Below, in pieces: positions 14,478 through 63,840 of a stretch of DNA of 64,000 bases. This stretch comes from Alphaproteobacteria bacterium (lineage in GTDB: Bacteria; Pseudomonadota; Alphaproteobacteria; UBA7985; JAUIBT01). The notes beneath the pieces are model-generated. The model was not told where the DNA came from and ran no database searches. It saw only the letters and a program-made list of their open reading frames with translations. The stretch is from assembly GCA_030428565.1 (NCBI GenBank), contig JAUIDR010000009.1, positions 9,986-73,985 on the forward strand, written 5' to 3'. Position 1 is the first letter of the stretch; each line of letters starts with the position of its first letter. The position numbers and the translations under genes are program-made.

Positions 14478-14891
14478 CGCCCGCTGCCCTTTTGGGTGAA
14501 TTTTAAAGCAACGGCCGCCAGACTCGCCCCAAAACACACATACTCCAAAGGCACGCCGTTCTGGCGCTGCCTTGCTATGGGCGCTGCATTGCTAGGGGAG
14601 GTGCCTTGCTGGGGCCGTTGCTTGTCGACGGCCAAGCGAGCCCCTGACGTGCGGCCATTTGCGAGCCCCAGGCTACAGTCGCAGCCGCTCTGTTTGCCTC
14701 CCCTACAAAAACCACGCTGAAGCTGGTCCGCGCCCAGTATGGCAGCTTGTCCATTGCGCGCGACCGGGCGGTGTCGGCTTGGCTAATCTTTATGCATCAT
14801 CGAAATTAATAACTATCATGAAAACTATCAATTTGAATAAATTGAGCCCGCATGCGAGCCTCCAATTGAGCCTTGGTGCAAGAAAAGGAGC

Positions 14892-42923: not shown

Positions 42924-43754
42924 CTAGCTGGCGTAGTTCGAACCTTCCTCGTCCAAGATGGCCATGAGTTCGCTCATATGCCGCTCGGCCTGGCCGGGGT
43001 AAGTCTCGATCTCATGCGCGGTTTTTTCAGCGATTTCATCGGACAAGACCCGCAGCGGTCGTCCGGTCTGCAGCGCGCGAATATAGGTCTCTGCTGCGCG
43101 CTCAAAATAGTAGAGGCGGTTAAAGGTCTCGGCCACAGTATCTCCGATCACCAGCACACCGTGGTTGCCCATGATCAGCGTTTTGACCTTGGGATCCGCT
43201 AGCAGCGTCGCGCAACGCGCGCCTTCATCCTCGAAGGCGAGACCGCCGAAGTCGTTGTCGATGGCATAGCGGTTAAAGAATGTCGCGGTATTCTGGTCGA
43301 TCGGCGGCATGTTACTGTCTTCCAAGCTGGCCAGTACGGTCGCGTGGATCGAGTGAACGTGCATGAGGCAGCGCGCGTGCGGGCACAGTCGATGCACCGA
43401 GCCGTGCAGGCCCCAGGCGGTCGGATCGGGCGCATCGGGGCGCTCGAGCGTGCTGGGATCGTTGGCATCCAACAGCAGCAGGTCTGAGGCTTTTATGCGG
43501 CGGAAGTGCATCTGGTTGGGGTTCATCAAGAACTGGCTGCCGTCCTCGTTGACCGCCAGGCTGAAATGGTTGGCCACCGCCTCGTGAAAATTGAGGCGCT
43601 CGGTCCAACGAAAGGCCGCCGCCATTTCGATGCGTTGCGGCCAGTGCTGCATATTGGCGCCCAGCGTTGTGCCAGAAGCTGTGCCAGAAGTTTTGTCAGA
43701 AGTTTTGTCAGAAATTTTGCCTGACGTTGGGTTAAGGGCGGTGACGCTGTTCAT
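42924..43754 (-). CDS. class II aldolase/adducin-family protein with a low-complexity N-terminal tail
   Basis: The core has the class II aldolase His ligands (HVHSIHA...). The N-terminus encodes the (T/I)S(D/G)(K/T) repeats from a 12-nt tandem DNA repeat. Confidence 0.7.
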   Translation of the reverse strand: MNSVTALNPTSGKISDKTSDKTSGTASGTTLGANMQHWPQRIEMAAAFRWTERLNFHEAVANHFSLAVNEDGSQFLMNPNQMHFRRIKASDLLLLDANDPSTLERPDAPDPTAWGLHGSVHRLCPHARCLMHVHSIHATVLASLEDSNMPPIDQNTATFFNRYAIDNDFGGLAFEDEGARCATLLADPKVKTLIMGNHGVLVIGDTVAETFNRLYYFERAAETYIRALQTGRPLRVLSDEIAEKTAHEIETYPGQAERHMSELMAILDEEGSNYAS

Positions 43755-57845: not shown

Positions 57846-58337
57846 ATGACCCGCATCACCCCTTATATGACCAATCGCAATTTTGCGCTGCTGGCGCTGC
57901 TGCTCAGCGGTGGCATGCTGCTCGGCGCACTGGGATTTCAGTACTTGGGCGGCCTAGAGCCCTGCAAGCTCTGCATGATCCAGCGCTTCCCGCATGTGCT
58001 GATCCTAGCGGGCGCTGTGGATCTGTTGCTGTTTGGGCACGCGCGTTGGCTGGGCCGCATGGTGCTGGGCGCTCTGATCGTGCTCTATTTGATCAGCGCG
58101 GGATTGGGCATCTATCATACGGGGGTCGAGCAGCACTGGTGGGACAACGCCGTTAGCTGCGCGGGCGGCAAGTCGTTCGAGACTTTGGAAGACATGATGA
58201 ACCAGGAAATCGTGCGCTGCGATAAGCCAGCTTGGAGCTTGTTTGGCATCACCATGGCGGGCTACAACGCGCTGTTCTCTGCCGGTGCGGCTTTGTTGGG
58301 ACTGCTGGTCTTTGCTGTGGGCTTGAAGCGCGGATAA
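57846..58337 (+). CDS. dsbB: disulfide bond formation protein B
   Basis: It has four TM helices, a first-loop CKLC pair and a second-loop pair C...C (SCAGGKS...RCDKPAW). It is 163 aa. Confidence 0.8.
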   Translation: MTRITPYMTNRNFALLALLLSGGMLLGALGFQYLGGLEPCKLCMIQRFPHVLILAGAVDLLLFGHARWLGRMVLGALIVLYLISAGLGIYHTGVEQHWWDNAVSCAGGKSFETLEDMMNQEIVRCDKPAWSLFGITMAGYNALFSAGAALLGLLVFAVGLKRG

Positions 58338-58340
58338 CGC

Positions 58341-58822
58341 AAACCCCGAGGCTTGGAAGCCAAGCCGACGGTGGCTTTGCGGGACACCAGCGAAACCCCG
58401 AGGCTTGGAAGCCAAGCCGACGGTGGCTTTGCGAGACACCAGCGAAACCCCGAGGTTTGGAAGCCAAGCCGACGGTGGCTTTGCGAGACACCAGCGAAAC
58501 CTCGAGGCTTGGAAGCCAAGCCGACGGTGGCTTTGCGAGACACCAGCCAAAACCCGAGGCCTGGAAGCCAAGCCGACGGTGGCTTTGCGAGACACCAGCG
58601 AAACCCCGAGGCCTGGATGCCAAGCCGACGGTGGCTTTGCGAGACACCAGCGAAACCCCGAGGCTTGGAAGCCAAGCCGACGGTGGCTTTGCGGGACACC
58701 AGCGAAACCCCGAGGTTTGGAAGCCAAGCCGACGGTGGCTTTCCGAGACACCAGCCAAAACCCGAGGTTTGGAAGCCAAGCCGACGGTGGCTTTCCGAGA
58801 CACCAGCCAAAACCCGAGGCAT
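58341..58822. repeat. 52-bp tandem repeat array, 9.3 copies at at least 92% identity, each unit a hairpin (AAGCCA-N9-TGGCTT)
   Basis: Direct reading shows a period of exactly 52 nt (AAACCCCGAGGCTTGGAAGCCAAGCCGACGGTGGCTTTGCGAGACACCAGCG). There are no unique spacers, so it is not CRISPR. All six frames are open across it, which explains the long artefactual ORFs. Confidence 0.9.
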
Positions 58823-58844
58823 GGCGGTCAGGCCTGTTGGCGAG

Positions 58845-59405
58845 CTAGCCATCCAACTCCGAATCCCAATACAGATAATCCTGCCAGCTTTGGTGCAAGT
58901 CCGGGCGCGGCAAACAGCGGCCAGACTGGTAGAGTTGACGCGCGCTGGGCCGCCCTGGTTTGTGCGCAAGATGAAAGCCGCAGGCAGCCAGCGAGCGATT
59001 GGCCTTGGCGCGGTTGCAGCTCTGGCAAGCGGTCACGATGTTTTCCCAGCTTGTCTGCCCGCCGCGCGAGCGGGGCTTGACGTGATCAAAGGTCAGATCT
59101 TCGGTTGGCAGCTTGGTATGGCAATACTGGCAGGTAAAGCGATCTCTCAAGAAGACATTCAGGCGGGTAAAGGCCGGCCTGCGGTCCAAATTAATGTAAT
59201 CTTTGAGCGCAATCACGCTGGGCAGGCGCAGCTTGATTGTCGGCGAAGTCACCTCGCGGTCATAGGTGGCCACCACCATCACTCGGTCTTGAAAACAGGC
59301 CTTGAGGGCATCCTGCCAATGCCAGGTCGAGAGCGGATAATAGGACAAAGGGCGAAAGTCAGCGTTCAGAACCAGCGCAGGGTAGGCATCAAGACAAGCT
59401 GACAT
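58845..59405 (-). CDS. HNH endonuclease-family protein
   Basis: Contains the HNH core CQYCHTKL...FDHVKPRSRGG...NIVTACQSCN. It is 186 aa. Confidence 0.8.
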   Translation of the reverse strand: MSACLDAYPALVLNADFRPLSYYPLSTWHWQDALKACFQDRVMVVATYDREVTSPTIKLRLPSVIALKDYINLDRRPAFTRLNVFLRDRFTCQYCHTKLPTEDLTFDHVKPRSRGGQTSWENIVTACQSCNRAKANRSLAACGFHLAHKPGRPSARQLYQSGRCLPRPDLHQSWQDYLYWDSELDG

Positions 59406-59638: not shown

Positions 59639-60373
59639 CTAGTCATCATCTCCCAATCCCGCCATGAAGTAGGCTGCGCGGCCTAGGCCCTGCTGATCAA
59701 TACCGTGCGCCAAGCCCTCGCAAGCATGGGTCTGAACGGGCACCTCAAGTTGTTCCAGCGCTTCTTTTGCCTGCCCTAAAGCTTTAAAGGGCACAATTGG
59801 GTCCAAAGTGCCGTGGACCAGCAAGACCGGCGGCTTGACCTTAATCTCGCTCGCGAGGCGCTGTGGTCCGGCAAGCGCTCCAGAAAAGCCTACCAGGCCA
59901 GCGGGCGCTTCGGGCAGCCGCAAACCGACCTCCAGCGTCATCATGCAGCCTTGTGAAAAACCGACCAAAATCAAGTCTTGCCACCCCAGCCCAGCGGCGG
60001 CTAGAGCCTTTTCCAAGAATGCGGTGAGGCCTGCACGGGCCTCTAGCGCGCCCTGGTCCTTTTCGTCGGCTGAGAGCGACATCAGCGGGAACCACTGGCG
60101 CCCCCCCATCATGCCGGGTTGCGGCGCGTTGGGCGACAGCCAGAGGCTGGGCCCCGGCACATGCGGTGCCAAGACCGGCGCCAAGCCGATCAAATCGTCC
60201 ATATCGGCGCCAAAGCCGTGCAACAGTACCACCAAGCGGCGCAGCGGCTGGCCAGCCGTGTCTTCATCGCGTGAGCGACTGTCGAACAGGCGGGCATCAT
60301 AGGGAAGACCCGCAAGAAGGACTTGCGGGTCTAGAGAAGCGGCCTGCTGGCCAGGTCGAACATTTTCGGTCAT
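59639..60373 (-). CDS. alpha/beta hydrolase, phospholipase/carboxylesterase family
   Basis: Contains LVVLLHGFGAD, the nucleophile elbow GFSQG and a C-terminal His region. It is 244 aa. Confidence 0.8.
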   Translation of the reverse strand: MTENVRPGQQAASLDPQVLLAGLPYDARLFDSRSRDEDTAGQPLRRLVVLLHGFGADMDDLIGLAPVLAPHVPGPSLWLSPNAPQPGMMGGRQWFPLMSLSADEKDQGALEARAGLTAFLEKALAAAGLGWQDLILVGFSQGCMMTLEVGLRLPEAPAGLVGFSGALAGPQRLASEIKVKPPVLLVHGTLDPIVPFKALGQAKEALEQLEVPVQTHACEGLAHGIDQQGLGRAAYFMAGLGDDD

Positions 60374-63153
60374 TGCTTCTTCAGTTCGTCAAACAGATCA
60401 TCGACCAACTGTTCTAACGGAGTGCCTTGCAAGCGCAAGACCCCAGCTCTTGCCTCTTCGGCCCAACGGCCATCGGGCCACTTGCGCAAATAGAACTCAT
60501 AGCCTTGGCGCGAATTGCGCTGGACCACATCGTCCCAGTCTTTGCGCTCCGAGCCGCGATAAGGACCGGTTCGCGCAGCCCGCACAAAGGCCGCGCGACC
60601 ATTGAGGCTAAAGCGGAACCATTGGTCGTCGCTGGTCTTGCCGTTGACCTGGATCGCGTCCTGAGCTTGCAGGCGTCCGACCCGAAGCACGTTGCCCTCG
60701 GGGGCATCAAAGACCCGCGTGCCATAGCGGGTAATGACCCGGATTTCTGGCGCCAAAGGCTGCACCTCAATGCTGGCGCCGCCAGACGAGCCGCCCGGGT
60801 CCATCAAGTGCGACAGGCGTACATAGCCTTCGCGGCCACCGCCACCACGCACGCTCACGCGCACCCAATCGCGGCCGTTGACCCGCGCCAACAAGCGCAC
60901 CGACCTGCCTTCGCTCAAGCTCAGCAAGCGCGCGGAGCGGCGGTCCGGACGCTCGAAGAGCCCCGTGGCCTGCTTGGTAATCATGCGGCCGTCCATAGGC
61001 GACTCACTGGGTCCGGTCAGGGCGCTCAGTTTGGCCCGCGCTTCATCTTCAAAAGCCGAGCCTGGGAAATCTCGCAAGAAGGCTTCCAGCTCAGACGCGC
61101 CGGGGTTGTCGCCCAGAGCCCGCCAAGCTTGCAGAGCCGAACCTTCATATTCCGAGAGCAAGCGCGCAAAGATATAACCTTCGCGGCGGACACCGCTGGT
61201 GCGTACGCGTACCCGCATCCATTGACGATCAGCGGTCAGCGAAATGCCATTGACGACGAGGTTGGCGGCCAAGGTATCCAGGATATCGCCGTCGCGACTG
61301 GGCGTTGAGCGCAGGCGCACTCGGCGTTCTGTATAGTAAGGCGCGTTGACGATAATGACCTCGGGCTCGTCAGGGGTCAGTTCATCCAAGCGCGCTTGCG
61401 CCAGAGCCGCGAACTGACTGGCGGCAAAGTTGGCCAAGAAGCGCAGGAAGACACGGCGATTATTGCTGTTCTTGATCTCTTCCCAAGCCTCGTAGTCGGA
61501 GCCAGCATAGACGGAGAGAACGCGCTTGAGCATGAAGCCCCGCCCGCCGCGGATTTCGACTTCGTACCAATTGGTACCAACGACCGCCCCCAAAACGGTG
61601 AGCTTTTGCAACGCTTCAAAGCGGCCAAGTCTGTTGCCTTCACTGCGTGAGGGGAAATCAAAGACCTGGGCATCACGATCCAGATAGTAGACCTGGTGGA
61701 TAGGGGTGATGCGCAGATTCGCAAGACGGCGGTCGCGATCGGCGGCGATGATCGCGGCGCGCTGTTGGCGGGCGCGATCGGCAAAACGACCGTCTGGGAA
61801 ACGCTGTAGGAAATTGTTCAATGCCGCCAAATCACCCGAGCCATCGACCGACTGCCAAGCCACGAACTCTGAGCCCGCTGCGGGTTCGACCAGGGAGGAG
61901 AAGATAAAGGCCTGCTGGCCGTTCGGCAGCTCGATCAAATACCACGATTGGCCGCTCACCTTGCCAATGACCGTCACTTGCGTATCGGTGCTGAGCGTTT
62001 GCACCCGATCAAAGTTGGTGCCCGGACCTTGGCGCGTGTTGGAATTACGACGGGTGATATAGGTTTGATTGATGTTGCTCAGCCGATAGGAATCGTAGAG
62101 GTCTGCGCGCGCCTGCCGGGCCTGAGCCGCATAAACCCCGCCGGGGTAGTCAACCAAATAGGCATCGTAACCCGCCAGCGCCTGGCTGGCCTGCGCTTGA
62201 TCCCAAGCTTCTTGTTCAGCCTGGCTGACAAAACCACCCACGGGGCCCGGGCCGGAAGTCACCAAGCCCGCCAGTGTCGTTGTGGATTGATAATCGAATG
62301 AGAGTTGAGGGCGTGTCGCGCCATTACTCCGTTGAGCGACCGAACTTGCGAGCGTTGATAGCGCCTCCATCAGATCCATACGGCCATCGCGTACCAAACT
62401 GGCCAAGAACAAATTGATAAACAGGCGGCTGCCGTTGGCGGTGTTGGGTTGCGCGCCAGATTGGGCGTGCAAAACGATCACATCGCGGCGGCCGATAGGC
62501 TCGCTCAATGCCGGGCTGACATCCAGCGCGCCGTCGCCAAGAACCAAGCGCGCATCGTCGGCCAAAGCATGGTCAAAGCCGGCATTGACCAGTAACGCCC
62601 CCGGCGCAGGCCCCGCGCCCAGTGCCATGACTACTGCGCTCAAATTCAGGGCCTTGGTGTGCAAATCAAACGGATTGCTCATTTCCGCATCGGTCGGCAG
62701 CGCATAGACGTGGCCGTCGACGCTCAGGCTGTGACCGGAATAGAAGACTAGGCGCTGTGAGGCGTCTTGCGAATCAGCAAAGAACTGGCCGACACCGGCA
62801 ATCAGCTCGGCCTGTTTGGCGTTCTCCACCCGTGAAACGCGGTAGCCCAGCGCGCGCAGCTCGAAGGCCAAATCACGGCCTTGGCGAATAGCGTCCGCGA
62901 CCGGCGGCAGACCGTCATAGCTCTGGTTTACGATCACCAAAGCGTGGGGAATGCGCAGACCTTGGGCTTGCGCACGACTGGCCCCGGGCCCAAACGCCAT
63001 CAGCGTCGCCAACAAGGCCAGAGCAAGCCAAAGGGCGGCTTGCCGCAAAATCGGGCCACGATCAAGCGCCTGCTGAACGACCTGCACACGCACGCGCGCT
63101 CGTCGCCGGGCTGGGCAAAGCTGGTGTCGGGCATTACAGTGAGAATCGCGCAT
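60370..63153 (-). CDS. large secreted multidomain protein: N-terminal caspase-like (peptidase C14) domain lacking the catalytic Cys, then repeated SH3b-like domains and helical W...YL..FP.G.FA..A hairpin repeats
   Basis: A signal-like hydrophobic segment (LWLALALLATLMAFGPGASRAQA) precedes the caspase motifs ALVIVNQSY and RLVFYSGHS. At the expected Cys position the sequence reads VIVLHAQSG. The mature protein has no Cys at all. SH3b-like modules occur three or more times. The true start is uncertain. Confidence 0.6.
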   Translation of the reverse strand: MRDSHCNARHQLCPARRRARVRVQVVQQALDRGPILRQAALWLALALLATLMAFGPGASRAQAQGLRIPHALVIVNQSYDGLPPVADAIRQGRDLAFELRALGYRVSRVENAKQAELIAGVGQFFADSQDASQRLVFYSGHSLSVDGHVYALPTDAEMSNPFDLHTKALNLSAVVMALGAGPAPGALLVNAGFDHALADDARLVLGDGALDVSPALSEPIGRRDVIVLHAQSGAQPNTANGSRLFINLFLASLVRDGRMDLMEALSTLASSVAQRSNGATRPQLSFDYQSTTTLAGLVTSGPGPVGGFVSQAEQEAWDQAQASQALAGYDAYLVDYPGGVYAAQARQARADLYDSYRLSNINQTYITRRNSNTRQGPGTNFDRVQTLSTDTQVTVIGKVSGQSWYLIELPNGQQAFIFSSLVEPAAGSEFVAWQSVDGSGDLAALNNFLQRFPDGRFADRARQQRAAIIAADRDRRLANLRITPIHQVYYLDRDAQVFDFPSRSEGNRLGRFEALQKLTVLGAVVGTNWYEVEIRGGRGFMLKRVLSVYAGSDYEAWEEIKNSNNRRVFLRFLANFAASQFAALAQARLDELTPDEPEVIIVNAPYYTERRVRLRSTPSRDGDILDTLAANLVVNGISLTADRQWMRVRVRTSGVRREGYIFARLLSEYEGSALQAWRALGDNPGASELEAFLRDFPGSAFEDEARAKLSALTGPSESPMDGRMITKQATGLFERPDRRSARLLSLSEGRSVRLLARVNGRDWVRVSVRGGGGREGYVRLSHLMDPGGSSGGASIEVQPLAPEIRVITRYGTRVFDAPEGNVLRVGRLQAQDAIQVNGKTSDDQWFRFSLNGRAAFVRAARTGPYRGSERKDWDDVVQRNSRQGYEFYLRKWPDGRWAEEARAGVLRLQGTPLEQLVDDLFDELKKQ

Positions 63154-63362: not shown

Positions 63363-63840
63363 CACAATGACTTAGCGACAAAATCCCACAGCTTGCTCCC
63401 GCGCTTAGCTTCATGTACCGCCTGGCTTGGCACGTGGCCCGCCCCAACTCTCAAAAACGCCCGCTGTTAAGCTCTTGGGATTTGGCGGGTGGTTTTGGCG
63501 GATGGTTTGTGTTTATCGCGCCTGGATCGGGCCCGGTTATGAGCCGCACCCGCCTAGCAGAGCAACGGACACAATAAAGGCACCCGGGCTACGCGTTGCT
63601 TGGCGAACCTAGGGCTCGCTTGGGGCCCCTGCCGCACGGCTGTTATTCGAGCTGCTGCGTAGCCATGTCAGCTTGCAAAAATTTGGATAAAGCGGTTACA
63701 AGGATCGGGGCTGGCGAGACTCGCTGACAGTGGCACTGATCGCCGCTGCGGACTTTTGGACGGGCCTGGTGCCGCGTTTCATGGCGCCTGTGCGACAAGC
63801 GATCGAGTGCTTGCCAAATATCAATGCAAAGGCGGTCCCA

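Follow-up and report, generated by a model that had tools for sequence, protein, structure and literature searches.

The locus under study lies between two convergent genes of an alphaproteobacterial contig, of which a stretch of 64,000 nucleotides (64 kb, hereafter the window) was analysed. On the left, dsbB (57846–58337, + strand, 163 aa) ends with the stop codon TAA at 58335–58337; its product matched the Pfam family DsbB (E = 2.8e-33) and the gene is found in conserved synteny. On the right, a gene encoding an HNH-domain protein of 186 aa (58845–59405, – strand; Pfam HNH, E = 4e-16) has its stop codon at 58845–58847. From stop codon to stop codon the gap measures 507 bp, and nearly all of it is occupied by a tandem array. 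Tandem Repeats Finder placed this array at 58341–58824 with a period of 52, 9.3 copies, 95% matches, no indels and a score of 842; it is the strongest repeat of the window by far and the only tandem array there with a period of at least 20. An initial inspection of the letters alone (the sequence-only reading) had described a 52-bp array of about 9.3 units in this convergent gap, and the description held. The first unit begins 3 nt (CGC) after the dsbB stop codon. Nine full 52-bp units (58341–58808, no strand assigned) abut head to tail, without any spacer and all in direct orientation, as was evident from the Tandem Repeats Finder output, the unit listing and the table of variants; their consensus is AAACCCCGAGGCTTGGAAGCCAAGCCGACGGTGGCTTTGCGAGACACCAGCG. 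A pattern search with a 38-nt core returned nine occurrences at up to two mismatches, compared to none in 100 shuffles.

Variation among the units affected 8 of the 52 columns, and adjacent units had variants in common (U5/U6, U8/U9). U1 and U7 were identical in sequence and U8 differed from U9 at a single position, in agreement with the relationships that had already been pointed out from the letters. On the HNH side, the array runs out into a degenerate tenth unit (58809–58844, no strand assigned), where AAAACCCGAGGC fits the unit before the sequence diverges (ATGGCGGTCAGGCCTGTTGGCGAG; nhmmer, E = 0.059). These 36 bases preceding the HNH stop codon did not form a stable hairpin and were homologous to the HNH-proximal degenerate copy found in a sister lineage, L101. 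A pair of substitutions was observed at the unit junction, in columns 52 and 4 of adjacent units and 4 nt apart (GCGAAACCCC to GCCAAAACCC). The two changes always occurred together, at three junctions, and shift the outer helix into another register (AGCCA:TGGCT). The AAAACCC form of the junction was also present in the L101 copies and in the degenerate tenth unit and may represent the ancestral junction type. Apart from the array, tandem repeats of short period (12–17 bp) were seen in this clade, namely at 14563–14615, 43666–43729 and 63481–63508 of the window, at L104:15876-15940 and at L101:770-824. Some of them were perfect and apparently intergenic (14 bp × 4.6 copies with 100% identity in L104; 15 bp × 3.7 in L101), which suggests that the clade is generally inclined to tandem duplication.

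Each unit consists of a 43-nt imperfect palindrome and a 9-nt linker (GAGACACCA). According to ViennaRNA, the palindrome folds as GCGAAACCCCGAGGCTTGG-AAG-CCAAGCCGACGGTGGCTTTGC with 17 pairs, including a perfect 7-bp inner stem (GGCTTGG/CCAAGCC) that is closed by a 3-nt AAG loop. The palindrome recurs every 52 bp, with that of unit 2 at 58390–58432 (no strand assigned) as an example, and the perfect inner stem of unit n starts at 58350 + 52 × (n – 1). The sequence-only reading had recognized tandem hairpins with the stem AAGCCA/TGGCTT and a 9-nt loop. Tandem hairpins with this stem and loop are indeed present, but the 17-pair palindrome is the favoured fold, with the 6-bp stem as a minor alternative. 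As RNA, the unit folded with –24.2 kcal/mol (z = –3.8), a value that was equalled or bettered by none of 200 shuffles; as DNA, it folded with –12.8 kcal/mol (z = –3.6; 1 of 200 shuffles). The 17-bp palindrome GGCTTGG-N3-CCAAGCC at the centre was exact in four of the nine units and carried one mismatch in the other five. The right arm may pair with its own left arm or, over the 9-nt linker, with that of the neighbouring unit, and this option was used in the fold of the whole array. On either strand, RNA of the array had strong structure (z = –8.0 and –4.3).

The majority of the variants seen among the units make the hairpin less stable. When the units and the L101 copies were considered together, 86.8% of the cells were paired versus 85.0% in shuffles, with the observed value attained by 33 of 500 shuffles, and covariation across the same set of copies was not significant. 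Evidence for selection on the hairpin structure is weak, conservation of structure being statistically inseparable from common ancestry; correlated changes in the palindrome can also be explained by templated repair. With AAA at one border and TTT at the opposite one, the palindrome resembles a weak bidirectional terminator. A 'terminator array', as had been considered before, was not supported by the scan for intrinsic terminators (a GC-rich stem-loop directly followed by a T-rich run with at least five T in eight), since no unit passed it: the T runs are only TTT or TTTT (3–4 nt) and lie partly inside the stem.

The stop triplets TAA, TAG, TGA, TTA, CTA and TCA are all absent from the array, leaving six open frames. 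The absence of stops from all frames had been noted from the letters and is correct, but it is unremarkable: 5.2% of shuffled units and 6.1% of the 54-nt windows of this genome were likewise free of stops in six frames. Since the chance frequency is thus about 5–6%, the open frames carry no weight. A protein-coding array was ruled out. Concatenated translations covering the six frames were without homologue in a set of 5.8 billion predicted proteins and matched nothing in Pfam, and a period of 52 is not divisible by 3. The non-coding status given in the sequence-only reading was therefore confirmed, while an in-frame protein running across the array, which that reading had named as a possible refutation, found no counterpart in these searches.

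Independent short-read assemblies (Logan) contained contigs whose encoded HNH or DsbB protein was identical to that of the window and whose flanks matched the window exactly. All of these contigs ended within the first or the last unit of the array. A de Bruijn graph built with k = 31 from the window alone predicted unitig ends at 58369 and 58791; the Logan contigs ended at 58370 (three contigs) and 58790 (five contigs), corresponding to 8 of 10 among those listed. The longest exact repeat within the array is 63 nt, so that an assembler with k ≥ 65 can traverse it unambiguously. An assembly artefact, an objection that had been raised from the letters, is hence unlikely, with independent support for the flanks and the boundaries and with the copy count being that of the window assembly. 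The array interrupts k = 31 assemblies in every sample that contains the organism and is a good candidate marker for strain typing.

We then considered the two neighbours. The HNH gene is conserved over the Alphaproteobacteria, where it is convergent with dsbB, and the nearest relatives of the host were MAGs of Alphaproteobacteria / Rhodospirillaceae. About 70 of the 80 alphaproteobacterial species sampled possessed the convergent, nearly abutting dsbB/HNH pair without an array, and in the majority of the 80 GTDB loci recovered, hardly any gap separates the two genes. Micropepsaceae-like genomes have an insertion of about 1.3 kb between dsbB and the HNH gene. Another gene of the region, located two genes from the array (60370–63153, – strand) and kept in the sister lineages, encodes a protein of 927 aa with a caspase-like Peptidase_C14 domain and SH3_3 repeats. 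PADLOC and NCBIfam scans of the genes flanking the array, including models of defence systems, IscB and Cas9, assigned to the HNH protein a generic HNH domain only, far below the cut-offs. The suggestion that an HNH nuclease acts on the array was ruled out on these grounds, as the pairing of the two genes is ancestral and common in genomes that lack an array and the protein has a generic HNH domain only. In line with the sequence-only reading, the array is not a CRISPR either. It has in common with CRISPR partly palindromic repeats at regular spacing, but it contains no spacers, no cas genes were found among the genes flanking it, and the neighbouring HNH protein of 186 aa is a single-domain protein far below the Cas9/IscB cut-offs.

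Comparison of the same gap across related genomes was decisive. By identity of the HNH protein, the nearest lineages form two subclades. L014/L021 have 91% amino acid identity to the window, a gap of 29 bp and no repeat; in L101, also with 91% identity, a homologous unit of 56 bp is present about 1.8 times within a gap of 81 bp. In L020/L022 (82–83% identity), the gap harbours an unrelated 103-bp repeat and measures 251 bp in L022, and in L016–L019/L023 (78–79% identity) it amounts to 8 bp and has no repeat. The regions are collinear between lineages, with the array as the sole large indel. Copy number varied accordingly between lineages (9.3 in the window, about 1.8 in L101 and 0 in L021); differences in copy number, among strains, had been expected in the sequence-only reading.

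L101 was reached via a 90% protein cluster, and its contig (Logan SRR24874946) spans both the HNH gene and dsbB. Alignment of the window unit to the L101 gap gave a score of 54, compared to 14.2 ± 2.4 for shuffles, with none of 1000 shuffles scoring as high. Both L101 copies aligned to the window unit, at an offset of 56 bp. Copy A displayed the same hairpin architecture (–24.0 kcal/mol) with the inner stem GGCCUG/CGGGCC, one pair of which differs from that of the window at both positions (C-G in place of U-A). Degeneration of the copy beside the HNH gene is common to L101 and the window. The array thus originated in situ and is homologous to a two-copy precursor. In L101 (L101:1647-1750), the dsbB frame enters the first repeat copy and stops at a TGA inside it. 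DsbB of this lineage therefore has 166 aa and the end ...GFRAKPEA*, in place of 163 aa and ...GLKRG*, its C-terminus having been remodelled by the repeat. The L021 gap showed a marginal similarity to the L101 unit, with GCCTGATCG in common; 23 of 1000 shuffles scored as high, and no conclusion was rested on it. Because the branching of the window lineage, L101 and L021 is a near trichotomy, loss of the repeat in L021 is indistinguishable from its gain in the ancestor of the window lineage and L101.

The 103-bp repeat was found at L022:3575-3815 with 2 to 2.5 copies and, in another sample, at L020:1250-1476, where it runs on into at least one more copy. Its last unit includes the dsbB stop codon, which identifies it as an in-situ duplication. 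No significant similarity was detected between the 52-bp unit and the 103-bp unit of L022. The possibility that the latter is a dimer of the 52-bp unit was dismissed, as it lacks a sub-period of 52 bp and its degree of structure did not exceed that of shuffles. In the orthologous loci of 80 species, about 470 kb in total, no tandem repeat with a period of at least 40 bp was found besides the 103-bp repeat. Since a second, unrelated repeat occurs at this very site, the promoter-free 3′–3′ spacer between dsbB and the HNH gene seems either to tolerate tandem duplication unusually well or to be prone to it.

Taken together, we consider it probable (roughly three in four) that the array represents a non-coding, lineage-specific minisatellite, born in place in the spacer where two convergent housekeeping genes face each other with their 3′ ends. 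The ancestral spacer between dsbB and the HNH gene would have been very short. In the common ancestor of the window lineage and L101, it would have gained a terminator-like imperfect palindrome of the form A3-stem-T3, and a single duplication of this palindrome may have produced two copies, of which the one beside dsbB was well formed and the one beside the HNH gene was decaying. We infer that this two-copy precursor is older than the split between the window lineage and L101, because the copies of both are homologous and share one architecture and the HNH-side copy is degenerate in either lineage. In the window lineage, the well-formed copy, by then 52 bp long and with a perfected 7-bp inner stem, would have been amplified to nine, presumably by replication slippage or by unequal exchange between units. 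Stepwise local duplication would fit the pattern of variants, since these are common to adjacent units. If the array were read through from either gene, each unit would be expected to fold as a hairpin with an energy near –24 kcal/mol. The array probably has little or no selective effect. Should it have one, the most plausible one, by analogy to REP hairpins, would be that of a multi-hairpin 3′ barrier providing protection from exonucleases and reducing convergent read-through.

Among the alternatives, we paid particular attention to a class of repeats with a constant unit length. Such 52-nt repeats were reportedly first described in a 2020 paper in J. Bacteriol. As outlined by Subirana and Messeguer (PMC8161180), the class is non-coding, has a 52-nt unit of variable, species-specific sequence, usually in 4–10 copies, and is reported from Firmicutes only; a motif and its reverse complement are often present in the unit, conservation between related genomes is partial, and the function is unexplained. 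It is defined by many arrays per genome that are equal in length and different in sequence, with B. coagulans possessing 57 arrays of 51–53-nt units in 3.55 Mb (PMC8161180). If the array belonged to this class, the unit length, equivalent to five helical turns, would itself matter, for example for phased binding of nucleoid proteins or for small RNAs. Several features point in this direction: the unit is exactly 52 bp long, within the range of 51–53 nt, and non-coding; nine copies are present, more than the four that mark the lower end of the class; the sequence is species-specific; and a motif occurs together with its reverse complement (GGCTTGG/CCAAGCC). One array per 64 kb is also compatible with the density in B. 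coagulans. However, the homologous proto-array of L101 has a period of 56 bp and the other repeat of the same gap one of 103 bp, without a 52-bp sub-period, so that unit length is not conserved at this locus. Moreover, a second array was found neither in the 64-kb window nor in 17 kb of a sister species, 470 kb of alphaproteobacterial loci contained no array other than the 103-bp repeat, and the host is an alphaproteobacterium. Membership in the class is thus unlikely. Given the 56-bp homologue, the single known array (64 kb covered) and the alphaproteobacterial host, the match in period is a probable coincidence, and we would give quite low odds to the array being the first non-Firmicutes case of the constant-length 52-nt class. 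If it nevertheless were, the series from L021 via L101 to the window would illustrate how arrays of this class arise in a convergent gap from a terminator-like palindrome before settling at a period of five helical turns.

A relationship to dispersed palindromic elements was suggested by the structure of the unit, and the sequence-only reading had considered a 'REP/BIME-like' array. The array could accordingly be a cluster of a mobile element of the REP/BIME or MITE type that was inserted in the gap. Like the REP/BIME sequences of Enterobacteria and Pseudomonas, the unit is an extragenic, GC-rich imperfect palindrome of REP-like size that is located at gene 3′ ends, in a convergent setting and in a tandem cluster; its arms are able to pair with either neighbour, as in BIME arrays, and a likely effect as a 3′ hairpin barrier would be common to both. 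REP/BIME sequences, however, are characterized by hundreds of dispersed copies, by alternating orientation within BIMEs and by mobilisation through a RAYT transposase. Pattern searches, nhmmer and blastn-short revealed neither full nor partial further copies of the unit within the 64-kb window and about 0.5 Mb of related loci, returning only the array itself and the contig ends; a search for further copies of the 52-mer had been proposed as a check, and none was present in the 64 kb of the genome that was searched. A window-wide scan for inverted repeats yielded no related hairpin family. The exact 24-mer core had no match in the GTDB species representatives, the 20-mer core had none in viral contigs, and four units gave no blastn match to plasmids and phages. 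In JGI metagenomes, the 20-mer core matched three times, each time singly, within other, apparently coding DNA and without a repeat; these are chance matches. The unit is thus known at one locus (64 kb of genome searched), where it is repeated directly and not in alternation, and L101 has a precursor at the same site. An inserted mobile element is therefore very improbable.

We also considered whether the array might provide phased protein-binding sites in the manner of a centromere or of iterons, with a dimeric protein on the 17-bp palindrome every 52 bp, corresponding to approximately five helical turns. The 7-bp inverted repeat with its 3-bp centre, exact or with one mismatch in every unit, and a period that would be near an integral number of helical turns are consistent with this idea. 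The repeats of sopC, the centromere of the F plasmid, have a unit of 43 bp. Similar to sopC-type centromeres and iterons, the array consists of direct repeats without spacers, each with a 7-bp inverted repeat. Unlike them, it resides in a chromosomal context of housekeeping genes with no cognate partition or replication genes nearby, it bears no similarity to plasmids and it is not conserved in sister species: the palindrome differs in L101 (GGCCTG...CGGGCC) and is missing in L021. We regard binding sites of this kind as a highly unlikely explanation.

The strong RNA structure on both strands and the regularity of the units could likewise be explained by a gene for a tandem-repeat regulatory RNA, for instance one that resembles a type III antitoxin or acts as a sponge and is cut to unit-length hairpins; a 'structured ncRNA locus' had also been among the initial suggestions. 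Neither the Rfam search nor the promoter scan lent support to it. No Rfam family matched in the window at the gathering threshold, the best permissive match (19 bits versus a threshold of 70) being noise, and no promoter-like site was present in or beside the array. A type III toxin-antitoxin system of the ToxI type requires a co-oriented gene for a toxin (endoribonuclease). Here, both neighbours point into the array, no co-oriented toxin or nuclease gene follows downstream, and the neighbours matched no defence system. With the array missing from sister species as well, a regulatory RNA gene has very little probability. Least probable of all is an assembly artefact, by spurious expansion or collapse, or a piece of a repeat protein: the window is apparently a metagenome-type contig and six frames are open, but independent assemblies with identical flanks end exactly at the predicted repeat boundaries, k ≥ 65 resolves the array, and the period, the protein searches in all frames and the chance frequency of open frames speak against coding.

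REP/BIME sequences, sopC-type repeats, CRISPR, intrinsic terminators and type III antitoxin repeats each differ from the array in at least one defining feature that was tested. The lineage-specific minisatellite remains the preferred reading, and the closest described kind is the bacterial minisatellite or VNTR, e.g., mycobacterial MIRU-VNTR or the 'satellites' of Subirana and Messeguer (PMC6749651). In common with these, the array is intergenic and composed of head-to-tail units of tens of base pairs with high identity, degenerate edges and a copy number that depends on the lineage. With a period of 52, 9.3 copies and 95% matches, it falls among direct repeats of approximately 10–100 bp. MIRUs are a dispersed family with about 40 loci within operons and contain small ORFs. 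The array differs from them in that it represents a single known locus with a unique sequence and that each of its units is a long palindrome. We regard it as a well-documented but ordinary bacterial minisatellite and as no new genetic system. Its importance for gene function is small, as sister species lack it and the conserved housekeeping genes on either side occur in the same pairing in about 70 repeat-free species. Its value lies in providing a clean natural case of minisatellite birth, in which the empty site, the two-copy precursor and the nine-copy expansion are represented in related lineages, and the second, unrelated duplication in the same gap adds to this case.
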